This document shows positions 5,668 to 22,483 of a stretch of DNA of 64,000 nt, piece by piece. Each line of letters starts with the position of its first letter. Within the stretch, counting starts at the first letter, position 1. The position numbers and the translations under genes are program-made. Under the pieces are notes generated by a model, which saw nothing but the letters and a program-made list of their open reading frames with translations, had not been told where the DNA came from and made no database searches. Origin of the DNA: an uncultured Acidobacteriota bacterium (GTDB lineage: Bacteria; Acidobacteriota; Terriglobia; UBA7540); assembly GCA_963804995.1 (NCBI GenBank), contig CAWDSK010000003.1, positions 128,001 through 192,000 on the forward strand, given 5' to 3'.

Positions 5668-5886
5668 CCCCCATACTGCTGAATTTGTGAACCAGCCATT
5701 CTACCCCAATCGAGGGCGGGCACGCGCCCGGATGATTATGACTATCCCGCTAATCCCCGCTAGTGCTCGCTAAAGGCCGGTGGCATCGATGCGACCAAAG
5801 TGTTGTACTTCTACCACACCAAACTGTTTCACCTCCTTTACAAGCCGCCCGTAACTTGTAGACATATAAAGGAGTAGGATTTTACA

Positions 5887-5915
5887 TTGACATGGCAAAT
5901 CAGGTGCAGTACAAG
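5887..5915 (+). promoter_or_regulatory. Putative sigma70 promoter of lpxC
   Basis: TTGACA-17 bp-TACAAG upstream of GGAGG RBS and TTG start. Confidence 0.45.
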
Positions 5916-5937
5916 GAGTTTACGTCGGGGAGGAATT

Positions 5938-6849
5938 TTGGGTCAACAGCAGACTCTGGCTTCCGCGGTATCATTATCGGGAATAGGCCTCCATACCGGC
6001 GTAACCGTCAACGTTCGGATTTGCCCGGCTCCCGCCAATTCCGGCGTCACCTTCAAGCGCACTGATTTGGACGGCTTCACCATCGAAGCGGAGTCTCGTC
6101 ACGTCGCCCGCGTAAGCTATGCGACGAGCCTAATGAAGAAAGGCGTGCTGATCTCCACGACCGAGCATTTGCTCTCGTCGCTCGCGGGTCTGGGGGTTGA
6201 TAACGCCCTCGTGGAAATCGACAACCTGGAACTGCCTATCGTCGATGGTAGCGCCTTGCCCTTCGTGAAGGTGATCCGGGGGGCAGGGTTGCGGCCACAG
6301 CGGGCCCGGCGCGCCTACGCCAAGATATTGAAACCCTTAGAAATTGTGGACGGCGTGAAGCGGATTGCCGTATTTCCCTCCGATACCTTCCGCATCAGTT
6401 ACTCGATCGCCTTCCCCCATCCCGTGATCGGGGCAGAATCACTCGACTTCATTCCTGGCGCCGGGAAGTACGAAGATGAAATTGCCCCGGCGCGTACCTT
6501 TGGATTTTTGGAAGAGGTCGAAATGCTGCTCAAGAGCGGGCTCGTGAAGGGCGGCTCACTCGAGAACGTGGTGGTTCTCAACCGCGAAGGCGTGATGAAT
6601 CCCGAAGGACTGCGCTTCCCCGATGAGTTCTGCCGGCACAAGATACTGGACCTGATTGGAGATATTTCCCTGCTCGGGCATCCCTTGATTGGACATGTGG
6701 TAGCCGACCGCGCCGGCCATGCCATGCACGCCCAGTTGGTCTCACAACTGCTCCGTCAAAAGCATTGCTGGACCCTCACCACCCACCCCGAAGCCGTTTC
6801 GAAAACCCCCGTCGTCCCGGCTACCGAACTTGCCACGAGTGGCGCGTAG
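5938..6849 (+). CDS. lpxC: UDP-3-O-acyl-GlcNAc deacetylase
   Basis: GIGLHTG, TEHLLS, ARTFGF, HKILDLIGD; start set at TTG 5938 after GGAGG. Confidence 0.96.
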   Translation: MGQQQTLASAVSLSGIGLHTGVTVNVRICPAPANSGVTFKRTDLDGFTIEAESRHVARVSYATSLMKKGVLISTTEHLLSSLAGLGVDNALVEIDNLELPIVDGSALPFVKVIRGAGLRPQRARRAYAKILKPLEIVDGVKRIAVFPSDTFRISYSIAFPHPVIGAESLDFIPGAGKYEDEIAPARTFGFLEEVEMLLKSGLVKGGSLENVVVLNREGVMNPEGLRFPDEFCRHKILDLIGDISLLGHPLIGHVVADRAGHAMHAQLVSQLLRQKHCWTLTTHPEAVSKTPVVPATELATSGA

Positions 6850-6920
6850 GTTTGGCGCTGGCTTTATCAACATCACCCCTTCATCGTCTTGTTAGCACAA
6901 CCCCTTTCTCGCTTCTTCAA

Positions 6921-7130
6921 CACCACCCCGGCGCGCAGCCCCGATCATCAATTTGGAAAGAACGCGCTATCGGGGCACGGCGCGCCACCCCTCCTCTTCA
7001 GCACCACCCCGGCGCTCAGCACGCCACCCCTCCTCATCTGAGGAGGGGAGTTCTGTACCAACTCCCCTCCTGATTCAGGAGGGGTGGCGCTCCGAGCGCC
7101 GGGGTGGTTATCGTTTGCGCCGGGGTGGTT
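6921..7130. repeat. Nested palindromic intergenic repeat (ACCACCCCGGCGC / CCCCTCC..GGAGGGG type)
   Basis: Two ACCACCCCGGCGC copies facing two GCGCCGGGGTGGT copies around CCCCTCC/GGAGGGG hairpins. Confidence 0.75.
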
Positions 7131-7296
7131 ATTTCCTTTACACAGCAGTTGTCTGCGGTGGGGCGTTTTTCCACCCTGCACTTAATAGAACCGTACTGAG
7201 CCATTTGCTATACTCTCCCCTGCACCGACGGGCATTTCAGCCTTGGGAATCTAGTCATCAGCGAGCGGTTTTCATGCTCGCGCTTGGGGGGGCGTT

Positions 7297-8562
7297 ATGA
7301 GCGTTCAGGAATCCGAGAAGGAACTGAGTGTCTACGAATCCATGGCGGTCAGGTTTGATGTGGCGGCCCGCAAACTGGGGCTCGACGAGGGATTGTTGAA
7401 GTATCTTCGTACCCCTAACCGCGAGATCATCGTCCACATTCCCGTGGCTATGGACAACGGCACACTGGGAGTATTCGATGGCTACCGCGTCCAGCACAGC
7501 ATCGCGCGCGGTCCCTGCAAAGGAGGGCTTCGCTACTCCCCCCACGTCACGCTGGATGAGATTCGCGGGCTCGCCGCTGAAATGACCTGGAAGTGCGCAG
7601 TCGTGAACATTCCCTTTGGCGGCGCCAAGGGTGGGGTTGTGTGCGACCCCTCTAAACTCTCCCTCGGCGAACTGGAACGGATTACGCGGCGCTACACGGC
7701 GGAGATTCTGGACTATATCGGGCCGGAGCGTGACGTGCCGGCCCCCGACATGAACACCAACGAGCAAACCATGGCCTGGATCATGGATACCTACTCCATG
7801 CACGTCCGCCACACGGTGACGGCCAGCGTGACCGGCAAACCGCTCGACTTGGGTGGCTCCGCAGGACGCCGCGAGGCGACGGGCCGCGGCTGCATGATTA
7901 CGGCGGACCAGGCGTTGGCACGCTTCGGCTGGAAGCGGGAAAGCACGCGGGTTATCGTGCAAGGATTTGGCAACGTGGGGTCGCAAGCGGCTCGCCTGAT
8001 GCATGAAGCGGGCTACAAAATTATCGGCGTCGCGGACATCACCGGCGGCGTGTTCAACACCTCGGGCATTGATATCCCCAGCTTGCTGGTGTACGTCGGC
8101 GAACATCGCACGCTGAAGGGCTTCGCGGGCGGAGAAAGCATTGGAACCCATGAAATCCTGGAACAAGATTGCGAAGTCTTGGTGCCCGCCGCCACGGAAA
8201 GCGTCATCACCAGCAAGAATGCCCATAAAGTGAAGGCGAAACTTCTGGTGGAAGGCGCTAACAGCCCCACCACGCCTCCCGCCGATGCCATTCTGTTTGA
8301 GCGCGGCGTGTTCGTGATTCCCGATATTCTGGCCAATGCCGGGGGCGTCACGGTTTCCTATTTCGAATGGGTGCAGGACCGGCAGGGTTACTTCTGGCCG
8401 GAAGATACCGTAAATGAGCGAATGAAACATATTATGATCTCCGCTTTTAACGACGTTGTGAGCTACGCCGAAAAACATAACGTCAATAACCGCATTGCCG
8501 CCTACATGCTGGCTATCGATCGCGTGGCGTTTTCGATTAAGCTACGCGGGATTTACGCCTGA
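7297..8562 (+). CDS. gdhA: Glu/Leu/Phe/Val dehydrogenase (glutamate dehydrogenase)
   Basis: [37 protein letters not shown]. Confidence 0.93.
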
Positions 8563-8813
8563 GGTTGCCGCGTCAGAATCAAATGCCGCTTCCCACGTGT
8601 TGTAAGACATTCACCTCAAGTCGTGGCGCGGAACAGGAGGGAGGACCCGCATAGGCGTTAAAATAAGCGCCGAATTGCTCTCGCGAGATTAAGGTACATT
8701 TTTCGAAAACAAGCCCACGTTGCGGAAACTTCCCTGGGTAGGCGGCTGCACGTCAAACTGAGCACGCGCAATGTTTCGGGTGCTCTGCCAAGACTAATTT
8801 CCTCGAAGCGGAG

Positions 8814-8966
8814 GTTGAGCTCTTCGCTCCGCTGCGCGGCCTTAATCTGGATTTTGAGCGCGAAAGGGACACCGGCCGGGATATCAACCTGTGAAGGGCT
8901 ATGCGGAACGTCAAGGACTTCGCCGGCCTCGGCGTCGTTCTCCTCAACCCCTGGGACGAGGCGTGA
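8814..8966 (+). pseudogene. Collapsed antitoxin/vapC remnant
   Basis: VELFAPLRGLNLDFERERDTGRDINL* (antitoxin-like C-terminus) overlaps GTG-KGY, followed out of frame by RNVKDFAGLGVVLLNPWDEA* (PIN toxin C-terminus). Confidence 0.7.
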
Positions 8967-9010
8967 ATCTTCAGGCCGCGGCGCTGCATTTATAGTGCGC
9001 TCGGCCCTCC

Positions 9011-9036
9011 CCACTAACCACTAGCCACTAACCACT
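9011..9036. repeat. Heptamer tandem repeat CCACTAR
   Basis: ccactaa ccactag ccactaa ccact. Confidence 0.75.
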
Positions 9037-9170
9037 TTCCTCATGACTCCGGACAGTTCTTTGTGTCGCTCTTCAGGCATCATTGTTCTTATAGAGCATC
9101 CGGCTTGCAGTTGCGGTACACTAAGGATTGAGATGGCTGGATCAATGCTCGTGGTCACACGAATCGACTC

Positions 9171-9458
9171 ATGGAATTTGAATGGGACGCCAAGAAAGCA
9201 GATTCGAACGTTGCGAAGCACGGCGTCACGTTCTCAGAAGCGATGACGGTGTTTGGGGACCCGCTGGAACTCGCGATTGCCGATCCAGAACACTCGGAGG
9301 ACGAATTCCGATTTCTCAGTATGGGCCAGTCGGCAATGGGACGCCTACTTGTAGTCGCCTACACTGAGCGCGAAGGCCGAACCCGAATCATCAACGCCCG
9401 GGAAGCGACTCCCCGAGAGCGGAGACAGTATGAATCAACACGTTCACCAAAACGATAA
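9171..9458 (+). CDS. brnT: BrnT family toxin
   Basis: MEFEWDAKKA..N..KHGVTF.EA..VF.DP...RIINAR.AT. Confidence 0.92.
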   Translation: MEFEWDAKKADSNVAKHGVTFSEAMTVFGDPLELAIADPEHSEDEFRFLSMGQSAMGRLLVVAYTEREGRTRIINAREATPRERRQYESTRSPKR

Positions 9459-9732
9459 CGACGAAATGCGGCCCGAGTACGACTTCTCGCACGGCGTTCG
9501 CGGGAAGCACTATGAGGCATACCGCGCCGGTACGAATGTGGTGTTTCTCGATCCCGATGTGGCCAAAGCGTTCGCCGATTCAGCTTCAGTCAATCAAGCC
9601 TTGCGCCTGCTCTTGCAGCTTGCCCGCACGAGCGCTCCCTTAGACATCCAATCTGGCAAGACGGTGCAGCCGAGTAACCGTGCCCCGCGCCGCGCCAAGA
9701 AGCCCAAGCCCCTTCGCGCCACTCGCGGGTAG
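9430..9732 (+). CDS. BrnA-type antitoxin
   Basis: EMRPEYDFS.GVRGK...VFLDPDVAKAF....VNQALR; overlaps brnT. Confidence 0.85.
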   Translation: MNQHVHQNDNDEMRPEYDFSHGVRGKHYEAYRAGTNVVFLDPDVAKAFADSASVNQALRLLLQLARTSAPLDIQSGKTVQPSNRAPRRAKKPKPLRATRG

Positions 9733-9734
9733 GC

Positions 9735-9955
9735 GCAGCAGGCAGTCTTGAATCTTGAATCCCGTGTCCCGCCTCTGACACCCGGCACCTGTGTTAGGCA
9801 GTAGGCAGCGGGCAGTAGGCAGTTTTTCCTAGCCCCCTGACACCCGGCACCGGACACCTTGCACTTAGCCCCCGAATCCCGAGTTCCGCACCTGGCACCC
9901 GACACCTGATACCTGCTTTTTCTTTCTCGCCACTCGCCACTAACCACTGGCCACT
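9735..9955. repeat. Cluster of mixed heptamer repeats (GGCAGTA, CACCYGR, CCACTVR)
   Basis: Period-7 tandem tracts visible across the interval. Confidence 0.7.
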
Positions 9956-10320
9956 GTTCTTACCCGTTCGAAATGCCGCGGACCTCACACGGCAGAGGTC
10001 CGCGCTAGGCTTGCTTGCTGGCAATCGCCAGCCAGCGGCGGTGCATTGGTTATGCATCACCAATGCTAGGGAGCGCAAATCTACGCCGCTTGCCTGGCCT
10101 CTCAGTGCTGAAAAAGAATCAATCGGAAGATATGGAAAGAAACGGGTGACAAAGCCGCGGCCCACCGCTAGAATAAAGCGCCGTCGGCGGGGCGACCAGG
10201 GAAGCCGCGGGCCTCGAGATACGTTGGTGATCTTTTATCAATAAATTCGCGAGGAGCAGGCCGCATTTCTAGAGGGGCGGTCGAACGCACGGATTCATCA
10301 CTGTTCAGCTTCCCAAGGAG

Positions 10321-10857
10321 GTGAGATTGAAAGCTAAGGCGAAAGCGTCAGCCGCGGTCATAAGCAGAGACGGAAAATATCGTTACAAGCTGTCCAGGCG
10401 TTGGACTCCGGGAAGTGATCGTGCTGTCTGGATCATGCTAAATCCGAGTACAGCAGACGCGATAGAAGATGATGCTACGATTCGACGGTGCATTTCATTT
10501 GCCAAGCGCTGGGGCTGCGACGGGATTGAAGTGTACAATCTTTTCGCATTACGATCGCGCCATCCGATCAGAATTGAGATAGTCGAGGATCCGGTGGGAC
10601 CGGACAATGACCTTTGGCTAAGCGTTGCGGCACAAACTACAGGAAAAGTAATTGCAGCATGGGGTGCATGCAATACACCGTTACAGTTGAGAAGAGCGAA
10701 TAAGGTGATCGAGTTCCTTCTCCGCGACCGGCGTGTTTTCGTATCCACTCTGGGCCTTACAAAGGGTGGCCAACCTCGACATCCACTTTACGTCCGAAAC
10801 GACACACCATTAACTCCCCTCGTTCACCCCCTAGGATTTAGCAAACAGTATCGATAA
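10321..10857 (+). CDS. DUF1643 domain protein
   Basis: YRY.L.R.W, IMLNPSTAD..DDATIRRC..FA, NLFALR, AAWG, PRHPLY. Confidence 0.9.
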   Translation: MRLKAKAKASAAVISRDGKYRYKLSRRWTPGSDRAVWIMLNPSTADAIEDDATIRRCISFAKRWGCDGIEVYNLFALRSRHPIRIEIVEDPVGPDNDLWLSVAAQTTGKVIAAWGACNTPLQLRRANKVIEFLLRDRRVFVSTLGLTKGGQPRHPLYVRNDTPLTPLVHPLGFSKQYR

Positions 10858-10954
10858 ACACGGATTTTCTGCCGACAAAAGGCGACGAAAGAGCTAAATT
10901 TGCGCAAATGCGAATCCCTAACTTATAGGAATGGAATGACTTACATTCTTAGTA

Positions 10955-11014
10955 ACAATATCTTACAAGTCCAAGATATTGTGCTTGACTTTCTTACAGT
11001 AATCGACGTAAGAT
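10955..11014 (+). promoter_or_regulatory. Promoter with two palindromic operators upstream of the six-gene operon
   Basis: ACAATATCTT-N8-AAGATATTGT (10955-10982); TTGACT-18-TAAGAT overlapped by TCTTAC-N10-GTAAGA (10992-11013). Confidence 0.65.
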
Positions 11015-11020
11015 TTGTTC

Positions 11021-11356
11021 ATGAATGCAGGAGAATTGACCCAAACACCGATTAAGACCCAACCCCAGGCAGTGCCAAGGATTGACCCTCTTGAGGTTCT
11101 GCGCGAGGTGCTCGAATTGCAACGCGAGAGTAGCCCGGAATTGGACGTCGAAGGGATGCTGGCCTTCGCGGTCGCAAATCCGACCACAGAAGTAGTGGAT
11201 TCGCTGGGCGCAGTAAGTATCGTTTGTGTTCTCTTCGGTGCGTACAAGCCTGACAATCTTATCCCGCAAAATCTTTTGACTCACGAGAACTTTAGCACGT
11301 TGAACGGACTAAGAAATGTTGTCAGAGAACTGAAGAAAAATCAAGGCAAACCATGA
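11021..11356 (+). CDS. Acyl-carrier-protein-like small protein
   Basis: VVDSLGAVSIV phosphopantetheine-site-like motif and C-terminal LTHENFSTL typical of ACPs; stop overlaps next ATG. Confidence 0.6.
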   Translation: MNAGELTQTPIKTQPQAVPRIDPLEVLREVLELQRESSPELDVEGMLAFAVANPTTEVVDSLGAVSIVCVLFGAYKPDNLIPQNLLTHENFSTLNGLRNVVRELKKNQGKP

Positions 11357-12327
11357 TGTCACCTGTTCGTTTAACCGATCTCACTCTGGAAATCACAAAT
11401 GCCTGCCATCATCGATGCGTGCATTGCAGTACGTATGGTGGGATACCTCGCGAAAACGAACTGACCCAAGATGAGCGACTCGATGTTTTGCGGCAAGCTT
11501 GCGCACTTGGTCTAATAGAGCTGCGCTTGCTTGGAGGGGAGCCGCTCTTACGCAAGGAAGACACATTCGAACTACTTGCGGAAGCCAATCGGCTTGGCGT
11601 GAAAAAAGCTCTGATATACACTTCTGCCGCTGAGAACGACTTTGGGTGGCTGACGACGTTACGCAACTTTGCTCCCATGGAAGTCTCCGCCGAAGCGAGT
11701 ATATACTCGGCGACGCAAGCAGTACACGATGGAATCACGGTAAAACCGCTCTCATTTGAGCGGCTACTCTCCAATTCCAAAGAGGCAGTGCAGGTCGGAT
11801 TCGATTTGAATTGGAACTTCGTTTGGATGAAACCGAATTTTTGGGAATTGGGACCTGTAATAGCACTAGCCTCGAAGATTGGTATTAGAAGAGTGCGGAT
11901 CCTGCGCTTAATGCTGAATGGGCGGGCGCGAGAAAACAGGGACACGTTGGAACTGCCGGCCGAAATGGAAATCCAGTGCGAGACGATTCTTAATTTGTTA
12001 ACCTCTCGCTATCCGGACGTTTTCATAGCTCATTCGAAACCACTTGTATTTCAGCTTGGGAGAAGCAACCACGATCATGTGGCTTCCTGCAGCGCCGGTA
12101 AAGGCCAGATTATCCTGCAGGCAGACGGTAGAGTCCTTCCTTGCATCGGGATGAAGGACACGCCGCAGCTTGAAATTGGAAATGTACGCATCGAAACTAT
12201 CGAAGACATTTTCTCACGCGCTCGCGGAATGAATTTCCCAGGAATGTCACAAGAGTATCGGGAATGTCCGGCGATCCAATTTCAAAAAACGCCAGAACTA
12301 ATCCAACTAACTCCAGGGAGGATTTAG
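11353..12327 (+). CDS. Radical SAM protein with SPASM/Twitch-like C-terminus
   Basis: CHHRCVHC (CxxxCxxC), GGEPLL, C-terminal CSAG...DGRVLPC...IGNV...ECP. Confidence 0.9.
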   Translation: MMSPVRLTDLTLEITNACHHRCVHCSTYGGIPRENELTQDERLDVLRQACALGLIELRLLGGEPLLRKEDTFELLAEANRLGVKKALIYTSAAENDFGWLTTLRNFAPMEVSAEASIYSATQAVHDGITVKPLSFERLLSNSKEAVQVGFDLNWNFVWMKPNFWELGPVIALASKIGIRRVRILRLMLNGRARENRDTLELPAEMEIQCETILNLLTSRYPDVFIAHSKPLVFQLGRSNHDHVASCSAGKGQIILQADGRVLPCIGMKDTPQLEIGNVRIETIEDIFSRARGMNFPGMSQEYRECPAIQFQKTPELIQLTPGRI

Positions 12328-12329
12328 GA

Positions 12330-12767
12330 ATGTCACCAAAGAGGGACATTGAACGTACGCTTAGCAGTGATCAGGAGCGTGCCTATCTTGCCCAGAAACT
12401 CAGAGAGGCTCGCGAGTACCTGGGACTGTCGCAGGAATACGTCTCGCAGCAAACGAATATGACGCGGCCGGCCATTTCTGAAGCAGAGGCTGGCAGACGG
12501 AAGGTCGAGAGTCTTGAACTAAAAAGACTAGCAACCCTCTATGGCCGCCCCCTTAATTATTTCTTGCCGGATCAAAATGGGATTGATCTCGACGGGTCTC
12601 GCGACGGGGTTTCCGAAAAAATAAATAGTGATCAGACCGAAATAAAACTACGAAACCTAACGAGGGACTTGCCATCCGAAGATAGGGAAGAGATTATCCG
12701 ATTCGCCGAATACTTGCGCCACAAGAAACAAGTGTCACAAACGCGCCGGGGCGTTGCTGCAAGATAG
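12330..12767 (+). CDS. XRE-family HTH transcriptional regulator
   Basis: LREAREYLGLSQE...ISEAEAGRRK; start moved to ATG 12330 after RBS. Confidence 0.9.
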   Translation: MSPKRDIERTLSSDQERAYLAQKLREAREYLGLSQEYVSQQTNMTRPAISEAEAGRRKVESLELKRLATLYGRPLNYFLPDQNGIDLDGSRDGVSEKINSDQTEIKLRNLTRDLPSEDREEIIRFAEYLRHKKQVSQTRRGVAAR

Positions 12768-12774
12768 GGATCCT

Positions 12775-13740
12775 ATGACTCGAGCCCAGTTGGTCACGGC
12801 TGCCAGCGGTGCAGCCTTGCTTGCCCATCGGAGGCACCATGTTGACCGCCAAAGGCGGATCGACGTGTTCGATATCCTCCGAGAGGTATCGAGCGAGGTT
12901 TTCTTTAGGCCGCTGCGAAAGGTGTGTGGTGCGTACCTTCCTAGTGACGGTCCTGTTCCTGCTGTCCTGATCAATTCGAATATGCCACTGAGTCGCCAAC
13001 GGTACACTGCTGCTCACGAGTTTGGCCATCTATTCTTAGGGCACAAAGTTGTAAGTCTTGATCAAGTAGTTGGCACCAGTTTTGAAGAACGTAAGAACTG
13101 GACCGATGAAGAGAACATCGCCGAAACGTTTGCTGCTTTCTTCTTAATGCCCCAGGGTTTAGTGGAGACCAGTCTACGTGAACTTAACGAAACGGAGATA
13201 ACCCCACAGACCGCTTACCTTCTGTCGCTGAAAATGGGCACTAGTTACTTGGCGACGGTCAATCACCTCCAAACTTTGAAGAAGCTGAATTATGCTGAGG
13301 CTGCCGAATTCCGAAAAATACAACCAAAAACGATAAAGGCGGAAATAATTCCCAGCGTTGCCAATAGGCACGACGTGTGGATTTTGGACGAGCGATGGAA
13401 TGATCAACCAATATACCCTGCGGTGGAGGACACGATTGTTGTTCGATTGGCTGAAACTCCCACTTCAGGGTATACGTGGGTTTGGCACAGGGACCCCGAA
13501 AGCCTTCGCGTCTTACAGGACGGATTCGCCGACGAACCCACACAGGAAATTGGGGGTGCCCGTGTACGCGAACTGGTAACGGAAGTATCGTCCGATGCCC
13601 ATGCTGAAAGAATCGATTTGGAACGGCGGCAACCGTGGGATGACAATGGCGAACCGTCAGCTCACTTCAGCGTGAATCTCTTCCCGCAGCAAATGAGGAA
13701 GAGCGGGCCTCTGGTCTTGCCGACGCTGGCCGCGAGCTGA
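12775..13740 (+). CDS. ImmA/IrrE metallopeptidase with C-terminal chagasin (I42)-like domain
   Basis: RQRYTAAHEFGH (HExxH), E..AETFAAFFLMP; C-terminal TIVVRLAETPTSGYTW...IGG...RRQPW resembles the I42 NPTTGYxW...GGG...RPW motifs. Confidence 0.85.
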   Translation: MTRAQLVTAASGAALLAHRRHHVDRQRRIDVFDILREVSSEVFFRPLRKVCGAYLPSDGPVPAVLINSNMPLSRQRYTAAHEFGHLFLGHKVVSLDQVVGTSFEERKNWTDEENIAETFAAFFLMPQGLVETSLRELNETEITPQTAYLLSLKMGTSYLATVNHLQTLKKLNYAEAAEFRKIQPKTIKAEIIPSVANRHDVWILDERWNDQPIYPAVEDTIVVRLAETPTSGYTWVWHRDPESLRVLQDGFADEPTQEIGGARVRELVTEVSSDAHAERIDLERRQPWDDNGEPSAHFSVNLFPQQMRKSGPLVLPTLAAS

Positions 13741-13743
13741 ATT

Positions 13744-14418
13744 ATGCACATAAGTGTTCGTGGTGCACAAACTGGCGTAAAAGACCAATATGACCGACCA
13801 ACATGTGTTGCTTTCGCGGTAACTGCTCTTCATGAGTACACCCACGACGTGTTGAAGGAGCTCAAAAAGGCGTCCGAGATCGACCTCTCTGAGGAATTTT
13901 TGTATTATCATTGCAAGCGACTTGACGGGTTAGGACCGAATTCCACTGGGACAACGATTTCGGCTGCTTCCACGTCACTTGCAGCGGATGGGCAATCCCT
14001 TGAGAGTTTGTGCCCGTACAAGGTGTCGTGCCCACCGGGGTTAATTACTCCCCCAGATCCCGGCGCTTTTGCTGATGGAAAAGCCCGGCGCCTCTTGGGC
14101 CTTCAGCAGCTAAACCTCTCCCTGTCGAGCATCCAGAACTCTCTCACTCTTTCGAAGCCAGTAATCGCAGTGTTGGATTGGTTTTCTAACGCGTATGTCA
14201 CCCAACTTGGCCGAATCGAAATTCCACGGACAACGGACCGCCTCCTTGGACGGCATGCCGTACTGATAGTTGAACTTGAAGAGGAGCCACGGGCTGGATT
14301 GTGCTTGATCACTTTCAAGAATTCTTGGGGTGCTAAATGGGGCGATAGCGGCTATGGTAGCTTCGGATTGGATTACTTCAGTGCATATGCGCGAGAAATC
14401 TGGGGAGTGAGCACCTAA
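13744..14418 (+). CDS. Papain-like (C1) cysteine peptidase, no signal or propeptide
   Basis: DQYDRPTCVAFA (Gln/Cys), LSEEFLY, RHAVLIV (His), KNSWGAKWGDSGYG (Asn). Confidence 0.9.
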   Translation: MHISVRGAQTGVKDQYDRPTCVAFAVTALHEYTHDVLKELKKASEIDLSEEFLYYHCKRLDGLGPNSTGTTISAASTSLAADGQSLESLCPYKVSCPPGLITPPDPGAFADGKARRLLGLQQLNLSLSSIQNSLTLSKPVIAVLDWFSNAYVTQLGRIEIPRTTDRLLGRHAVLIVELEEEPRAGLCLITFKNSWGAKWGDSGYGSFGLDYFSAYAREIWGVST

Positions 14419-14433
14419 AAGGAGAAGACCAAC

Positions 14434-15204
14434 TTGAGTAAGTTTTTTTCTTCGGCAACTTGCGCACATGCATGGGCCGACGCCATGGAGCACCTCATTG
14501 AATGTGAAGGGGGGAAGGATTTCAATCTTGTGATTGCGATCCAGAATCCGTGCGTTGAGATCCCAGAAGCAACGCGGGTTATAGATGAACTTGCTAAAGC
14601 CTGTGACCTAAAAGGCACGATGGAAAACGCAAACGCGATTTGGCCGTCGTTCTTCGCACGACCAAATAGGAAGAGCACTGAAGTGTTTGCTGACATTGAA
14701 CGCTTCGCGGTCCCGGCAATTAAGGCAGCGTGCAAGAATCGCCATGACTCCTATGTAGAGCGCCTAGTTGCTTGGCGAAGCGCAGATTCCAGCGAACCGG
14801 TTCCTCAGCTTCAGAACGTTTTGGCGCGACTTAAAAACGAGATTGGGAATCATGCCCCTAAGAGTTCGTCGTATGAAGTCTCAATTTATTCACCAGGTCT
14901 TGATGCGGGCTACATGAGTTTTCCATGTCTTTCTCACCTGTCCTTCAAATACGCTCACAATTGCGGCCTTCTTCATTTAACGGCCCTTTATCGGAATCAC
15001 GCCTACCTCAGCCACGCCTATGGAAATTTCATTGGATTGGGGAGGATGATGCAGTTTGCCTGCCGAGAGACGGGAACCCACCCAGGGGAACTCGTCTCAA
15101 TAAGCACCCACGCCGATTCAGAGATTGGTTCGGGGCGAAAATCTCGGACGCGTGAGGCGATTGTTCGCGTGAAGGAAATTTTATCCAAGCACCAGCAACC
15201 GTAG
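14434..15204 (+). CDS. Diverged thymidylate-synthase-fold protein
   Basis: FPCLSHLSF (catalytic PC), LTALYRNH...YGNFIGL aligning to ThyA QRSCD...PFN; TTG start after AGGAG. Confidence 0.7.
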   Translation: MSKFFSSATCAHAWADAMEHLIECEGGKDFNLVIAIQNPCVEIPEATRVIDELAKACDLKGTMENANAIWPSFFARPNRKSTEVFADIERFAVPAIKAACKNRHDSYVERLVAWRSADSSEPVPQLQNVLARLKNEIGNHAPKSSSYEVSIYSPGLDAGYMSFPCLSHLSFKYAHNCGLLHLTALYRNHAYLSHAYGNFIGLGRMMQFACRETGTHPGELVSISTHADSEIGSGRKSRTREAIVRVKEILSKHQQP

Positions 15205-15239
15205 CGCGGACCTGTTTTGCAGGTCCGCGGCTTTTTGTT
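15205..15239 (+). terminator. Intrinsic terminator closing the operon
   Basis: CGCGGACCTG-ttttg-CAGGTCCGCG 10-bp stem, then GCTTTTTGTT. Confidence 0.85.
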
Positions 15240-15554
15240 GTCGATGGGGGACGAGCCCGCTTTGGCCCGATTTCTGTTCATCATCGCGAACTCATAATTC
15301 ACCTTTCACCATTCACTCTTCACAATTCTCCCCGCCCATGCGAATATTCCCATCCAACCGCCAAGACCGAGGTTCAAACCATGGCCAACCCGGAGGAGCA
15401 GTGACAAGTGGCAACTACGATGGCAGGTGAGATTGGGTAGAACTGCGCCACCACCCGATTAATGGGAAGGTGAGCATGTTTGGTGCTACAATGATGAAAG
15501 GAAGCCCTGTGCTAGCAAGAAGCCACTTGGCCCAGGGGTTGCAGAGACGAATCC

Positions 15555-15782
15555 ATGACGATCACGGCAAAATATGAAGATGGCGTCTTCAAGCCCTTGG
15601 AGAACGTGCGCATCATCGAAGGGACGATAGTTGAGGTCCGCGTGCCCTCCGACGCCGGCCGTCCCGAGAACAAGGCGCAGTCGGTTGGGGATTTCGCCTT
15701 CTACGGCATGTGGAAGGACCGGACGGACATCGGTGACAGCGTGGAATACATCAGCAATCTCCGTCGTAATCTTCGGGGCTGA
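15555..15782 (+). CDS. AF2212/DUF104-like antitoxin
   Basis: MTITAKYEDGVFKPLE.V.I.EGT.VEV...FYGMWKDR.DI.DSVEYI. Confidence 0.8.
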   Translation: MTITAKYEDGVFKPLENVRIIEGTIVEVRVPSDAGRPENKAQSVGDFAFYGMWKDRTDIGDSVEYISNLRRNLRG

Positions 15783-15802
15783 AAGCTTCTTTCCAACTTT
15801 CC

Positions 15803-15845
15803 ATGCCTTACTTGATAGACAGCGATGTCCTGATTGACATATCAG
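15803..15845 (+). pseudogene. Truncated vapC (PIN) N-terminus
   Basis: MPYLIDSDVLIDIS PIN start motif downstream of an antitoxin; similarity is lost afterwards. Confidence 0.65.
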
Positions 15846-16225
15846 CGCCATCACGGGATTGCGCCTGGAAATTCCTGGTTACTAGCGCGACTTTGCCTTC
15901 CACCCTCCAAAACCGGTTAGTACCGCGCGGCGACGCCGCAACCAAAATCTTGGTCCAGGTCCAGGCCAAAGCGCCCAGACTTTCAGCTACACCGCGCCGC
16001 GAATTCCAAGCGATCCACCTGGCTGGTTAGACGCCAAGCCATGGACGTGCCCCGTGCACTCAAGCTCCCCGGGGTTCTGGGAATCAGCTCCTGGGTTGCC
16101 GCCCCAGCGTTTACCGATCCACGCAACTCTGGACGGTTGACGGGGGAAAACAAATCACCTGGCCGGTAACGGCAGGGGTGCGAGGCGCCTCCAGTCCGGC
16201 TTATTTTAACGCCTATGGAGGACCC

Positions 16226-16942
16226 GTGAGGGGGAAGTCAGGCTCCGCACTAAGAATTCATTACCTGCAACACGTTCCCTTTGAAAAACCCGCCAGAATC
16301 GCTACCTGGGCTCGCCGCCAAGGGCACACTTTCAAAGGGTCAGGCCTCTATCGCGGAGAACCTCTCCCTTCACTCGCTGATTTCGACTGGCTGGTTATCA
16401 TGGGCGGGCCGATGAGCGTGCACGACGAAGGCCTCTATCCCTGGCTTACCGATGAGAAAAAGCTGATCGAACGCGCCATAAAAGCACGCAAGCGAATTCT
16501 GGGCGTTTGCCTGGGCGCCCAGCTCCTTGCGGATGTTTTGGGAGCGAAGGTCTACCGGAATCCGCACAAGGAAATCGGCTGGTTTCCTGTAAATCTGACT
16601 CCTCACGCTACACCGTCAAGTCTGCTGGCTGACTTCCCGGAAAGCTTTAGGGCCTTCCACTGGCACGGGGAGACATTTGAACTTCCTAGGGGCGCACGGC
16701 ATCTGGCCACTAATCACGCCTGCAAGAATCAAGCCTTCGAATTCGACGGGACCGCGCTGGGCGTGCAATTCCACCTGGAGGTTACTCCGAGTGTCGTGCG
16801 GGCGTTAATCCAGAACTGTCGAGCTGACATCGGCTCAGGCCAATATCAGCAAACCCCTGATCAAATACTGGCGCGCCCTGAAGAGTTTGGTATGATTAGG
16901 CGGCTCTCGTATAGAATGCTCGATCGGCTTGCTGCGTCTTGA
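16226..16942 (+). CDS. Type 1 glutamine amidotransferase (GMP-synthase-like)
   Basis: IHYLQHVPFE, MGGPM, GVCLGAQ, HWHGE, QFHLE; GTG start at the edge of the TSD. Confidence 0.9.
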   Translation: MRGKSGSALRIHYLQHVPFEKPARIATWARRQGHTFKGSGLYRGEPLPSLADFDWLVIMGGPMSVHDEGLYPWLTDEKKLIERAIKARKRILGVCLGAQLLADVLGAKVYRNPHKEIGWFPVNLTPHATPSSLLADFPESFRAFHWHGETFELPRGARHLATNHACKNQAFEFDGTALGVQFHLEVTPSVVRALIQNCRADIGSGQYQQTPDQILARPEEFGMIRRLSYRMLDRLAAS

Positions 16943-17016
16943 GGCTGACAGCCGGCAAAACAGATATTCTCATCATCGAGCGAACATTTACGCAAAACAT
17001 CTGAAGGAGAGAAAGC

Positions 17017-17916
17017 ATGGCAGATCTTGAAGGCGAAAAAGAAACAAAGAATTTTTTCCTGGATGTTCCCTTTGAAAACCAGGCCTTTTTCCTGCGGGGC
17101 GCCGGAGCGCTCGATTGGGGCATGCAGAACCGGCTGGCCAAAATCTTCAGTCCGGCATCCGGGCGCACCGTGATGCTGGCGATCGATCATGGCTACTTCC
17201 AGGGCCCCACCACGGGTTTGGAGCGCGTGGACGTCAGCATCGTTCCCCTCCTTCCCTACACCAACGCCTTGATGTTGACGCGCGGCATGTTGCGAACCAC
17301 GATTCCCTCGGCTTTTTCCCAGGGGGTTGTGCTCCGGGCGAGCGGCGGCCCCAGCATCCTCAAGGAACTTTCCAACGAGCAAATCGCCATGGACGTCGAA
17401 GATGCGGTCCGGCTTAATGCGTGCGCCATGGCGGTGCAGGTCTTCATCGGCGGCGAATATGAGACGCAATCCATCCACAACATGACGCGCCTCGTGGACG
17501 CGGGCTTGCGCTGCGGTATTGCCACGCTGGGCGTGACCGCGGTGGGCAAGGATATGGTGCGCAATGCCAAGTACTTCCGCCTGGCCTGCCGCATCTGCGC
17601 GGAATTAGGGGCGCAAGTTGTGAAAACCTATTACGTGCCGGAAGGCTTCGAGACGATCACCGCCTCCTGCCCGGTGCCGGTGGTAATGGCGGGCGGCAAG
17701 AAACTGCCCGAACTCGAGGCTCTGACCATGGCTTACCGCGCGGTCAGTGAAGGCGCTGCGGGAGTCGATATGGGCCGCAACATCTTCCAGTCTGACGCGC
17801 CCGCTGCGATGATCCAAACCGTGGGAAAGGTCGTTCACGAACTCATGAAGCCTGAGCAGGCCTACGATTTCTATCAAACGCTCCGGCACGAGAAGCCGGA
17901 AACCATGGCGAAATAA
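17017..17916 (+). CDS. lsrF: LsrF thiolase / class I aldolase
   Basis: [38 protein letters not shown]. Confidence 0.93.
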
Positions 17917-17923
17917 GAAGGCG

Positions 17924-18016
17924 GGAGTCAGGAGCCAGAATCGAAACTCGAAATTCGAAACTCGAAACTCGGCGTGTAAATTGCGAGTTTCGTCACTCCC
18001 GAGACTCCCGACTCCT
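17924..18016. repeat. Inverted heptamer-array hairpin (GGAGYCA / TCGAAAY)
   Basis: tcgaaac/tcgaaat tandem facing cgagtttcg, bracketed by ggagtc..gactcc. Confidence 0.7.
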
Positions 18017-18032
18017 CTTAACGAGGGACGGC

Positions 18033-18761
18033 ATGCCAAATCCCAAAGGTCTCGAACTGCTGCGCGACGCGGCGCCGACGGTCAGCGTGGGCGTGGTTAC
18101 GGCCAACCTTCTCTCCCTGGGATCGGAGATTAACCTCCTGGAGGGGACGGGCGTGAAGTTGGCGCACATCGACGTGATGGACGGGTGCTTTTGCCCCATG
18201 ATGACGGTGGGGCCGCCATTCATCAAGGCCATCAAGACTTCCCTGCTCAAAGACGTGCACCTGATGATTGACGAACCGCTCGAAAAGGTGGCGGAGTACG
18301 TCGCCGTGGGGGCGGACATCGTCACCTTTCATGTGGAAGCCTGCACGCACGTGCATCGAGTATTGCAAAAGTTGCGGACCCTCACGAACGCGAACGACCC
18401 GGAAAGAGGGATCGTGCGCGGCGTGGCGCTGAACCCCGGAACGCCACTGGAAACGCTCGACCCGCTCCTTGAGGAACTGGAACTCATCCTGCTGCTGGCT
18501 GTGAACCCGGGCTGGGGTGGCCAAAAATATAGCCCCTCCACTAATCGGCGCATCGCCCGGGTGCAACGCATGATCGCCGACTCAGGAAAGGAAATCATTC
18601 TCTGCGTCGATGGTGGCATTACCAAAGAAAACATCGCGGAGGTTGCTGCCACTGGGGCCGACTTAATCGTTACCGGCAGCGCGGTGTTCGACGGCAAAAC
18701 GCCAGAGGCCAATGCGCGCTTTATGCTGGAGGCCGTGGCGGCGGCAAGCCGCCGGCGCTAG
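18033..18761 (+). CDS. rpe: Ribulose-phosphate 3-epimerase family (LsrE-like)
   Basis: HIDVMDG, DVHLM, NPGTP, VDGGI, VTGSAVF. Confidence 0.9.
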   Translation: MPNPKGLELLRDAAPTVSVGVVTANLLSLGSEINLLEGTGVKLAHIDVMDGCFCPMMTVGPPFIKAIKTSLLKDVHLMIDEPLEKVAEYVAVGADIVTFHVEACTHVHRVLQKLRTLTNANDPERGIVRGVALNPGTPLETLDPLLEELELILLLAVNPGWGGQKYSPSTNRRIARVQRMIADSGKEIILCVDGGITKENIAEVAATGADLIVTGSAVFDGKTPEANARFMLEAVAAASRRR

Positions 18762-18804
18762 AAGCGTAGGGCGGCGGGGCCGCAACCAACGCGTCTCGTA
18801 GGGG

Positions 18805-19514
18805 CATAGGCGTTAACCTAAGAGTTCGATGCGTCCGAAAGCCCGCAAAGCGGGCGTAAGGTCGTAGCCCACTGCGTAAGCGGTGGGTAAAGAAATCGTG
18901 TAAAATTCCCGCCCAGCCCCGGAGGGGCGAAAGGACATGTCGCACACCTACACCAACCTGCTAACGCACGTTATTTTCAGCACCAAGTACCGCGAGCCAT
19001 TGATTACCTCGGCACTCCAAGACGATCTGCTCGGCTACGTGGGCGGAATTGTGCGCGAACTGGGCGGGGCGCTCCGGGCCGCGAACGCCCGACCGGACCA
19101 CGTGCACCTGCTCTGCTCGCTGCCGCCCACGGTTGGGACGGCGGACGCCTTGCGGGTCGTGAAGACCAATTCCTCACGTTGGCTACACCGCAGCCGGGGT
19201 TTTCCCCGATTCGACTGGCAAACCGGCTATGGAGCGTTCAGCGTCAGTCATTCCCTCGCACCCGCCGTTGTGCGGTACATTCGCGAGCAGGAGAAACACC
19301 ATCGCCGCGTAACGTTTCAGGAAGAATTCATAGACTTTCTGAAGAAGAACGGCATTGCGTATGATGAGCGCTACATTTGGGCGTGAATCCTTTCGCCCCT
19401 GGCGGGGCTTAGGGGAGAGAGGCGCGTCTTTTCCCACGGCTTACGCCGTGGGCTACGACCTTTCGCCCGCTTTGCGGGCTGTCAGCATTTCTGAGAGTTA
19501 GGTTAACGCCTATG
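18805..19514. mobile_element. TIR-bounded element enclosing an IS200-like tnpA and its palindromic ends
   Basis: CATAGGCGTTAACCTAA (18805-18821) and exact reverse complement (19498-19514); inner imperfect inverted arms 18840-18935 and 19388-19480. Confidence 0.8.
18937..19386 (+). CDS. tnpA: IS200/IS605-family Y1 transposase (REP-associated type)
   Basis: HVIFSTK.R, PDHVHL (HUH), WQTGYGAFSVS, YIREQEKHH. Confidence 0.92.
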   Translation: MSHTYTNLLTHVIFSTKYREPLITSALQDDLLGYVGGIVRELGGALRAANARPDHVHLLCSLPPTVGTADALRVVKTNSSRWLHRSRGFPRFDWQTGYGAFSVSHSLAPAVVRYIREQEKHHRRVTFQEEFIDFLKKNGIAYDERYIWA

Positions 19515-19666
19515 CCCACGAGGGGTGCCCCTACGAGACGTGCAAATTGTTTGCTAAAAGAACAAGGATTTACGGTATTGCATTGTAGAGGCCTCCTTTA
19601 GAGGGCATCAATTGTTGAAGGCTCGGAGACAGTTGTTTATTCAACCCTGACCACCTTGAGACTCCC

Positions 19667-21775: not shown

Positions 21776-21778
21776 GAC

Positions 21779-21878
21779 AGTGGCTAGTGGTTAGTGGCTG
21801 GAAAAGGCTGAAATTCGAAAATCGAAACTCGAAAATCGTGGCGAGTTTCGAATTTCGATTTTCGAGTTTCGGCTTTCG
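21779..21878. repeat. Heptamer arrays AGTGGYT and inverted TCGAAAN
   Basis: agtggct agtggtt agtggct; ttcgaaaatcgaaactcg...cgagtttcgaatttcgattttcg. Confidence 0.7.
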
Positions 21879-21982
21879 GGTGCAACGCACAACCAACGTC
21901 TTCCGGCCCACCGATCCCCCTGCGCAAACCCGCCGCCGGATGTTACAATCCTTCCGAATGGTCCGGAACGTCCCAGGAGACA

Positions 21983-22483
21983 ACGCGCGTCATTGGCATC
22001 GACCCGGGGTTGAATATCACCGGGTATGGGGTGGTGGAAAGCTGCGCCAGTGAAGTCAAACTTGTGGAGGCCGGCGTGATTCGGCTGCCCCCCAGCCAGG
22101 GGGAAAATCTGGCGGCGCGGTTGGAATCGCTGTTCAATGAGCTTCAACAAGTGATCAAGGAGTTCAACCCGCGGGCCATGTGTCTGGAGGAAGTTTACAG
22201 CCATGCCGATTACCCCCGGACAGCAATTCTGATGGGCCACGCGCGTGGGGTTATTTGCCTGGCGGCGCAACTGGCGGGAATCCCGGTGCTGAGTTTTTCC
22301 GCCAAACGCGTCAAGCAGTCGGTGACGGGCAATGGCAATGCCTCGAAACTTCAAGTGCAGCGCTCGGTGCAGCACTTCTTTTCGCTCAATCGAACGCCGC
22401 ACCCACCGGATGTGGCCGATGCGCTGGCGGTGGCTCTGTGTTATGTGAACGCCACCCGCTACGCGAGGAATGGGAAGCGATAG
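21983..22483 (+). CDS. ruvC: Holliday junction resolvase RuvC (start uncertain)
   Basis: RVIGIDPGLNITGYG (extends upstream of the ORF-track start), LEEVY, VK..VTG.GNA.K.QV, DVADALAVA. Confidence 0.9.
   Translation, partial: TRVIGIDPGLNITGYGVVESCASEVKLVEAGVIRLPPSQGENLAARLESLFNELQQVIKEFNPRAMCLEEVYSHADYPRTAILMGHARGVICLAAQLAGIPVLSFSAKRVKQSVTGNGNASKLQVQRSVQHFFSLNRTPHPPDVADALAVALCYVNATRYARNGKR

Follow-up and report, generated by a model that had tools for sequence, protein, structure and literature searches.

Members of the IS4 family of insertion sequences (ISs), such as IS231A, Tn5 and Tn10, encode a DDE transposase in a single open reading frame (ORF), and this enzyme binds short terminal repeats, excises the element and inserts it elsewhere (PMC2266710). 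Within the IS231 subgroup, the ends take the form CAT-------AA--TAA--- and the direct repeats measure 10-12 bp (PMC2266710, Table 1). According to the sections of the 2008 survey cited here, members of that subgroup range from 1450 to 5400 bp due to passenger DNA, were almost only found in Firmicutes, and carried such DNA in a modular manner unseen in other IS4 subgroups or families (PMC2266710). Related to them are the mobile insertion cassettes (MICs), in which two inverted repeats (IRs) enclose at least one coding sequence (CDS) without a transposase over 0.7-3 kb. The ten MIC231s known in the account cited here have a conserved region beside the left IR, differ in their cargo and are moved in trans by the IS231 transposase (PMC6199540). 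MICs, MITEs (miniature inverted-repeat transposable elements) and solo IRs have together been viewed as relatives of ISs that are open to activation by a cognate transposase (PMC3129680). Here we describe E1, a 7,568-bp element at positions 8650-16217 of a 64,000-nucleotide stretch of DNA from an uncultured Acidobacteriota bacterium. This stretch, hereafter the window, is C3:128001-192000 of a 9-contig, 7.55-Mb assembly that is 92% complete. E1 is very likely a non-autonomous transposon, a MIC of the MIC231 type with IS4-type ends and no transposase of its own. This kind of element is already known, and the E1 family adds further members to it.

The termini of E1 are two exact copies of the 19-mer CATAGGCGTTAAAATAAGC in opposite orientations, and a perfect 9-bp direct repeat, GAGGACCCG, lies immediately outside them (Table 1), exactly as the initial annotation had claimed. 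In 100 dinucleotide-preserving shuffles of the window the mean number of 19-mer matches was 0.00, while the window itself holds a third match, with 3 mismatches, at 18805-18823. The inverted repeat is 19 bp long and extends no further; on alignment the similarity of the left and right ends is confined to these terminal bases, as in the sibling elements described below. The interior of E1 differs from its surroundings in composition, with a G+C content of 0.46-0.53 at 10.4-15.4 kb versus 0.58-0.62 in the flanks. Neither conserved end contains a sigma-70-like site. A 151-nt contig of run X1 spans the left junction (8588-8738) with zero differences. Read cover of E1 was thin, the best run containing 0.38 of the sampled words; no joint from 8649 to 16218 was among the 15 of 26 read joints listed, which has no bearing on excision either way.

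The genome contains siblings of E1. The core of the terminus, CATAGGCGTTAA, occurs 18 times in the 7.55 Mb, and 12 of these occurrences are ends of one family, which consists of four complete elements (E1-E4), the truncated E5 and two solo ends, one of the left and one of the right type (Table 1). All four complete elements are flanked by perfect direct repeats, of 11 bp in E2, E3 and E4 and of 9 bp in E1. By blastn, the likeness between elements is confined to about 165 bp on the left and about 150-160 bp on the right. Identity is 95-98% between left ends (94% for E1 versus the solo left end) and 88-98% between right ends, falling to 73-82% for the divergent E3. No protein is common to the elements beyond the translated ends and small toxin-antitoxin (TA)-like ORFs in a blastp comparison of all 416 stop-to-stop frames, so the unit that is copied consists of two ends and any DNA enclosed by them. 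An ORF adjoining the solo right end on contig C5 is 39% identical to the ORF at 9430-9732 of E1.

The cargo of the siblings is varied. That of E4 comprises both members of HEC-01, a candidate defence pair (PADLOC HEC-01A 4e-154, HEC-01B 1e-73; L003 1001-3788) which is also present at 82-89% identity in six other genomes of the genus, where these ends were not found alongside it. The sole gene of E3 (L002 1330-4653) encodes a 1107-aa protein without a Pfam, NCBIfam or PADLOC match. The genes flanking E4 are adjacent in two relatives, G007 and G015, which lack the element; at about 75% identity the junction there cannot be aligned, and three other relatives have 2.9-4.5 kb of other DNA at this place. 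Positions 128-220 and 2574-2695 of E4 have short matches in many genomes of the genus and few copies in this genome.

On the right side, the junction between conserved end and cargo is sharp in five elements, falling after ...AACCCCG, and E2 and E5 have a further 30-35 bp in common on both sides, yet carry entirely different genes. Conceivably, though we regard it as improbable, the ends of about 160 bp are not just remnants of a dead IS and form a reusable carrier in which cargo is exchanged between fixed junctions, while a helper IS4 transposase spreads the resulting cassettes to targets rich in G/C runs. One pair of ends would then have successively taken up TA genes with a CapH/CapP-regulated operon, the HEC-01 pair, a methylase/HNH module and stress genes. 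If true, this would make the family a transposon counterpart of the integron for defence genes.

The claim that no transposase or integrase is recognisable inside E1 held in every search made. Pfam (23 ORFs) and NCBIfam (15 ORFs) named none; the sets given to them also contained genes of the flanks and an ORF from another element. When the genome was scanned in six frames with NF033592, the IS4 transposase model, none of the 54 matches fell within E1, and tblastn with six IS4-type transposases found nothing below E 0.1 in the whole element and no transposase remnants in the conserved ends. No transposase was recognised in E2-E5 either. At least seven internal ORFs of E1 have no family match, and E1 could in principle be autonomous through an unrecognised transposase among them, for instance at 14434-15204, 11015-11356 or among the ORFs at 8658-10165. 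We consider this highly unlikely. The siblings have the same ends and their own duplications, yet share no E1 protein other than translated ends and small TA-like ORFs; the six-gene operon of E1 has homologs in two genomes of the genus (76-80%) where no such termini were found on the short contigs; and where ISs have these termini, their transposases are ordinary DDE enzymes of the IS4 type.

Three such ISs of the IS4 family reside in this genome, with termini that match the cassette terminus at 14-15 of 19 positions (15 of 18 for one of them). The first, IS (a), is 1390 bp long and present in six copies of 97.9-99.9% mutual identity. Its ends, CATATGCGCTAGAATAAGA and CATAGGCGCTAGAATAGCT, agree with the cassette terminus at 15/19 and 14/19 positions, respectively, and each copy has an 11-bp duplication (GGGGCCGGGGG twice, CCCCCCAGCCC, CCCCAGGGGGG, CCCCCATCCCC and GGGCTGGGGGG). 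Its 369-aa protein matches DDE_Tnp_1 (1e-14), the best NCBIfam match being NF033592, 'IS4 family transposase' (6e-30). In this 369-aa ORF the Y-(2)-R-(3)-E-(6)-K motif, defined in the part of PMC2266710 cited here, reads YRIRWQIELFFKRCK; it reads YRLRWQIERVFKRMK in the 383-aa ORF of one of the two single-copy ISs described next, the other of which encodes a 374-aa transposase. IS (b), of 1338 bp on contig C1, has ends CATAAGCGCTAAGATAAG, an 11-bp duplication (GGCCGTTGGCC) and 140.2 bits on NF033592, for which the curated cut-off is 115. IS (c), of 1330 bp (C6:1908453-1909782; L008), has ends CATAAGCGTTAACCTAAGA and scores 117.5 bits; its flanks are inverted, not direct, repeats of each other. 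The initial annotation had proposed a search of the genome for the same ends enclosing a transposase. None with exact ends was found in this assembly, while a genome of the same genus supplied one: a 1304-bp IS (G018:C24:455169-456472) has the exact 19-mer at both ends, an 11-bp duplication (GGTGGGAGCCC) and a 337-aa DDE_Tnp_1 protein that is 36-39% identical to the IS (a) protein by tblastn. This IS and the cassette ends have only the terminal 19-20 bp in common. Termini of the CATAGGCG type thus accompany IS4-type transposases in three resident ISs and in the 1304-bp IS, and wherever a duplication is present in these ISs (eight of eight) it is 11 bp long, as in three sibling cassettes. A fourth resident IS type (four near-identical copies plus variants, ends CAGTGCTGTCCCA) was rejected as a helper, its termini being unrelated; the one copy checked has a 9-bp AT-rich duplication.

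Cassettes and ISs also meet at the same target. One and the same base of a repeat of about 223 bp, after CACCCCCCAGCCC, adjoins two copies of IS (a) and the two solo cassette ends, which thus have a target in common besides the form of their ends. This repeat, of which there are about 48 copies (for example C6:1082439-1082497, and C5:647177-647338 together with 648729-648789), starts with TAGTGTGGTGTCCCGGTTAATATTTGACAAGG and is an insertion hotspot. Two further copies of IS (a) have flanks that are alike and include part of it. Elsewhere, ends of the CATAGGCGTTAACCTAA type (L008; C6:1903461 and C6:2026239) are preceded by the conserved context ...CGGCAGGGCCGACTTCAGGGCACCCC..., which may be either another preferred repeat target or a sign that the inverted repeat is longer than assumed. 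A further abundant IS of this genome, present about 18 times, has an open frame of 593-634 aa and only weakly matches NF033592 (37.7 bits); the window itself holds a copy at 58052-59056 on the minus strand (C3:186052-187056).

The terminus is not peculiar to this genome. A 16-mer form occurs in 13 of the 29 genomes of the genus, and the 19-mer was found at more than 114 places in a species-level genome collection, many of them at contig ends, in records titled Acidobacteriota, Armatimonadota, Bryobacterales, Fimbriimonadaceae, Chthonomonadaceae and 'delta proteobacterium', among others. Among the matches listed, a transposase like that of IS (a) lies just inside 7 of 81 ends. The 11-nt outer flank of those 81 ends, again among the matches listed, has a G/C frequency of 0.74-0.91 at positions 1-4 and 8-11 versus 0.57 overall, with a centre at background level, and the duplications in this genome follow that pattern. 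Gene-less elements of 116, 289 and 326 bp with the same terminus also exist in the genus, the 289-bp one with an 11-bp duplication (CCCCGTGGGGG). Two elements of relatives form a second cassette family, with the same 16-base terminus and their own subterminal sequences on the left and right: one of 6199 bp (G036:C60, L172 501-6699), with genes for a helix-turn-helix (HTH) protein, an 843-aa SMC-like ATPase, a PIN protein and RmuC, and one of 1803 bp (G008:C2, L175 1001-2803), with a methyltransferase gene. Of the ORFs scanned in these two elements none encodes a transposase, and neither element has a direct repeat.

Comparison with relatives locates the site into which E1 was inserted. The glutamate dehydrogenase gene gdh and the downstream gene for a DeoC-type aldolase are syntenic across the genus, and E1 is present at this locus in none of the 30 relatives searched. 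As the initial annotation had predicted for genomes lacking the island, G007 and G015 have the amidotransferase gene next to gdh, before the DeoC-type aldolase gene, with an uninterrupted junction and a single copy of the target. In both genomes, homology to the right flank sets in at query base 8921; this corresponds to window position 16217, the last base of E1. In G015 the continuous stretch ...GTCGAGGCGAGGAACATGGGGGAGGATCA, followed directly by GTGAGC..., agrees with the left flank (8620-8645) at 22/26 positions and with the right flank from GAGGA onward at 52/68, both alignments including the single target copy; the layout in G007 is the same (...CCCGGAGGATTA, followed by GTGAGC...). In both relatives the amidotransferase starts at the same GTG (window 16226-16228). 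The insertion is thus in the ribosome-binding site (RBS) of the amidotransferase gene. The duplicated GAGGACCCG comprises RBS and spacer and restores the site, while the gene is split from its former upstream region.

A single insertion of the whole block would best account for these observations. An IS4-family DDE transposase made elsewhere would bind both 19-bp termini and excise E1; the 3' ends would then be joined at staggered positions, about one helix turn apart, in a target rich in G/C runs, and repair of the stagger would leave the flanking direct repeat. That E1 moved in one piece and in trans, as the initial annotation had put forward for a DDE transposase, is supported by the siblings, which combine the same ends with different cargo and separate duplications, by the resident IS4-family ISs with near-identical termini and 11-bp duplications, by the exact-terminus IS in a genome of the same genus, by the uninterrupted site in two relatives and by the coincidence of the element boundary with the break in synteny. 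We infer both the movement in trans and the identity of the enzyme. The helper may have been a resident relative, one of the three ISs, or an IS with the exact terminus that has been lost or was left unassembled, with roughly equal odds. The accompanying suggestion that the event was recent is poorly founded: the right end of E1 is 88-89% identical to those of its siblings and has two small deletions, and the copies of IS (a) are 97.9-99.9% identical to one another.

Several observations weigh against the identification of E1 as a trans-mobilised MIC. Its duplication is 9 bp long, versus 11 bp in the three siblings and in all eight ISs that have one. Judged by the family pattern, the left flank (GGGAGGACCCG) is a good target, and the right copy lacks its first GG; that E1 originally had an 11-bp duplication and lost two bases from the G run of the right copy is only a guess. 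The conserved 160-bp ends are limited to this genome among the 29 of the genus, being absent from the other 28, which leaves the cassette family without an independent witness elsewhere; nor were they found, among the matches listed, at the 81 same-terminus ends from other genomes. An IS with exact 19-bp termini is absent from this assembly, the nearest resident ISs deviate from the cassette terminus by 4-5 of its 19 bases (one of them by 3 of 18), and the transposase of IS (a) scores 104.4 bits on NF033592, under the cut-off. There is no direct repeat at IS (c), at a 710-716-bp unit of the window that has similar ends (see below), or at three of four elements examined in relatives (the 6.2-kb element of G036, the 1.8-kb element of G008 and the 326-bp element of G010). 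Finally, the relatives with the uninterrupted junction have about 80% gene identity and differ in the target at 2-3 of 9 bases, so that the empty site is homologous, not identical, and among nine relatives checked the amidotransferase gene is beside gdh in only two and absent there in seven.

The unit just mentioned, at 18802-19517, is 2.6 kb from E1. It is bounded by a perfect 20-nt inverted repeat, GGGCATAGGCGTTAACCTAA (18802-18821 and 19498-19517), and contains a gene for a 149-aa Y1 (IS200-like) transposase (18937-19386; Pfam Y1_Tnp 1e-20) between two 57-nt hairpin-rich arms. The first 12 bases of its repeats, CATAGGCGTTAA, are the same as in the island termini, and the unit could on this ground be taken as the source of an IS200-like, repetitive extragenic palindromic (REP)-associated transposase that moves the island. 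HUH Y1 transposases (those of IS200/IS605 and the REP-associated tyrosine transposases, RAYTs) act on hairpins in single-stranded DNA and produce no target duplication. The cassettes carry duplications of 9-11 bp, there are DDE ISs whose termini and duplications are the same, and ends of the CATAGG type are near only one of five Y1 genes. The Y1 paralogs are flanked by Acido-Lenti-1 hairpins of Rfam, not by the CATAGG motif, and such hairpins are absent from the island ends. The agency of this transposase is therefore, in our view, even less likely than an unrecognised enzyme within E1, and E1 was rejected as a REP/RAYT system on account of its target duplication and of the absence of RF01687 hairpins from its ends. 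The unit has no direct repeat, its outer flanks forming an inverted pair, and gives the impression of a Y1 gene trapped by IS4-type ends on either side. Its hairpin arms at 18840-18887 (minus strand) and 19433-19480 (plus strand) match RF01687, 'Acido-Lenti-1 RNA', with 30.5 and 40 bits (gathering score 37). Genome-wide there are 37 matches to this family, 14 of them above threshold; there are matches within about 100 nt of four of the five Y1 paralogs, and a tandem array with a spacing of 121 nt is at C5:204676-205326. Acido-Lenti-1 is filed as a small RNA, with an entry in Table 1 of PMC2864571. The motif behaves in this genome like the REP sequence of a RAYT; a search by name found no such statement in titles or abstracts.

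The two remaining explanations are the least probable. A defective integrative element moved by a site-specific recombinase in trans, with the direct repeat as att core, would suit a low-G+C island with TA and defence-like cargo, but the direct repeats differ in sequence among the four complete copies, the ends are inverted rather than direct, Pfam and NCBIfam recognise no integrase, and there is no tRNA gene at 5000-22000 of the window. Equally hard to credit is a chance pair of repeats, or leftovers of two unrelated insertions around a block that never moved as one. The interior is indeed a mosaic: its G+C is host-like at 8.65-10.2 kb, the low-GC core lies between REP-like repeats, and some repeat segments are common with other genomes. 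But left-type and right-type ends are paired in all four complete elements, every one of them flanked by a perfect direct repeat; the site is uninterrupted in relatives, with homology restarting at the last base of E1; and zero 19-mer matches are expected by chance.

Table 1. Features of E1 and its flanks (window positions) and members of the E1 family (contig positions)
Feature	Position	Strand	Length	Remarks
Flanking host gene, glutamate dehydrogenase (gdh), outside E1	7297..8562	+		Pfam ELFV_dehydrog 3e-76; syntenic in listed genus genomes
Left target-duplication copy, GAGGACCCG	8641..8649			single homologous copy in G015, G007
Left terminal inverted repeat, CATAGGCGTTAAAATAAGC	8650..8668	+	19 bp	fits IS231-subgroup end signature
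Conserved left end	8650..8812	+	~163 bp	blastn 95-96% to E2/E4, 94% to solo left end; five further genomic places
BrnT-type toxin gene	9171..9458	+		Pfam PF04365 6e-25
ORF overlapping brnT, partner-antitoxin position	9430..9732	+	100 aa	no Pfam/NCBIfam match
REP-like repeat copy, left of low-GC core	9970..10015			inverted pair; many short genomic copies
DUF1643 gene	10321..10857	+		Pfam PF07799 3e-39
Operon gene 1	11015..11356	+	113 aa	no family match
Radical SAM/SPASM enzyme	11353..12327	+		Pfam Radical_SAM 3e-13, SPASM 9e-6; weak PADLOC pVip 5e-10
HTH (Xre-type) regulator, weakly CapH-like	12264..12767	+		Pfam HTH_3 9e-10; PADLOC best RmrA 5e-10, capH 1e-5
M78 (IrrE-like) peptidase and chagasin-type inhibitor fusion, CapP-like	12754..13740	+		Pfam Peptidase_M78 3e-10, Inhibitor_I42 1e-9; PADLOC capP 1e-17
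Papain-family cysteine peptidase	13744..14418	+		Pfam Peptidase_C1 1e-8
Protein with weak thymidylate-synthase-like match	14434..15204	+	256 aa	NCBIfam TIGR03283 37.9 bits versus cut-off 174.6; no Pfam match
REP-like repeat copy, right of low-GC core	15194..15258			inverted pair; very high contig depth in peat runs
AF2212-like small protein	15555..15782	+		Pfam PF01954 1e-9
Conserved right end	16070..16217	-	~148 bp	blastn 88-89% to E2/E4/solo right end; two small deletions; five further places
Right terminal inverted repeat	16199..16217	-	19 bp	exact 19-mer match
Right target-duplication copy, GAGGACCCG	16218..16226			RBS of next gene; final base is G of GTG start
Flanking host gene, class-I glutamine amidotransferase, outside E1	16226..16942	+		Pfam GATase 9e-21; start at GTG 16226 by homology, N-termini of G007/G015 align from this GTG
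E1	C3:136650-144217		7568 bp	direct repeat GAGGACCCG (9 bp)
E2	C3:837399-841240		3842 bp	direct repeat GGAGGCAGGCG (11 bp); cargo Transgly_assoc and BON-domain genes
E3	C6:599931-604020		4090 bp	direct repeat GGGGGACGGGC (11 bp); cargo one 1107-aa ORF, no family
E4	C6:1929309-1932096		2788 bp	direct repeat GGGGTTAGGGG (11 bp); cargo AAA_21 ATPase and DUF4276
E5	C6:1048368 to ~1053903		~5.5 kb	right end without last ~52 bp; cargo LexA-like, 824-aa N6 methylase, HNH protein
Solo left end	C6:1082498
Solo right end	C5:247302

Much of the cargo named in the initial annotation stands: BrnT, DUF1643 and the AF2212-like protein are recognised by Pfam, and there are six same-strand genes at 11015-15204. 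The ORF in the position of BrnA has no family match, and the 'TA remnants' were not confirmed. The six-gene operon is possibly a regulated defence or peptide-modification module. For its radical SAM/SPASM protein, all NCBIfam radical-SAM families score far under their cut-offs. The operon recurs at 80% identity in G006:C102 and at 76% in G015:C70, and no cassette-type termini were found beside these homologs, which lie on short contigs. Two inverted copies of a REP-like repeat enclose exactly the low-GC core of 5.18 kb, that is, the DUF1643 gene and the operon. This repeat has dozens of genomic copies, and both arms match one locus in opposite orientations. Many joints in the peat metagenome contigs appear to skip from about 10015 to about 15195; they were rejected as a deletion form of the core, because the same repeat sits at both places.

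Most of what is documented on MICs concerns IS231 of the Bacillus cereus group and some plasmid-borne resistance genes. Here, an uncultured peat bacterium of a poorly known soil lineage contains a whole family of cassettes that have a single pair of ends in common and carry as much as 7.6 kb of cargo, and these ends can be concretely paired with candidate helper transposases. The family suggests that cassettes lacking a transposase can explain small islands of accessory or defence genes for which annotation pipelines would offer no explanation. E1 also illustrates that insertion within a ribosome-binding site is possible without destroying that site. A limited search of titles and abstracts found no literature on cassettes carrying defence genes, which is not proof of absence.

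Among known systems, Tn5 and Tn10 (with IS50 and IS10) resemble E1 in the IS4-family DDE enzyme, the short terminal repeats and the cargo between the ends, and their target duplications are of similar length (9 bp for IS10, 8-9 bp for IS50; PMC2266710, Table 1). They are composite, however, with a whole IS at each end and CT/CW termini, whereas E1 has a single CAT terminus per end and no IS copy. E1 was accordingly rejected as a composite transposon, having one terminus per end, no inner repeat and no transposase. MITEs are likewise non-autonomous, with IS-type ends, and movable by a cognate transposase (as stated in the part of PMC3129680 cited here), but contain no genes, while E1 carries about 11. 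Transporter ISs (tIS) have passenger genes, in the description given there (PMC3129680), but retain the transposase that E1 lacks. The elements with qnrD and qnrS2 on small plasmids are described, in the sources as excerpted here, as MICs with a passenger gene; they carry single resistance genes on plasmids of Proteeae and Aeromonas, whereas E1 is chromosomal and has no resistance gene.

The MIC231s of the Bacillus cereus group are closest. They differ from the present cassettes in several respects: the host here is an uncultured peat/wetland bacterium and not a Firmicute; the cassettes measure 2.8-7.6 kb, versus about 0.7-3 kb for the MICs of PMC6199540 in the passages cited; about 150-165 bp of DNA is conserved at both ends; the cargo is other; and the related transposases are shorter, with 337-383 aa. 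The 9-bp repeat of E1 is outside the 10-12 bp of the IS231 subgroup, and mobilisation in trans is in the present case inferred. The 11 bp of the siblings and related ISs are within that range, and both lengths agree with an IS4-type duplication of about one helix turn (8-13 bp). CATAGGCGTTAAAATAAGC has the prescribed base at all eight fixed positions of the IS231 signature (CAT at 1-3, AA at 11-12 and TAA at 15-17), and by this signature the family would fit the IS231 subgroup; the ISH8 subgroup (ends CAT-----------T-----, repeat 10 bp), which likewise has CAT ends, is a conceivable alternative. As in MICs, IS-type inverted repeats enclose passenger CDSs and no transposase in E1, and as in the MIC231s the DNA next to the repeat is conserved while the cargo varies, the end signature is the same, the 11-bp sibling repeats are of the expected length and the target is symmetric and G/C-rich.

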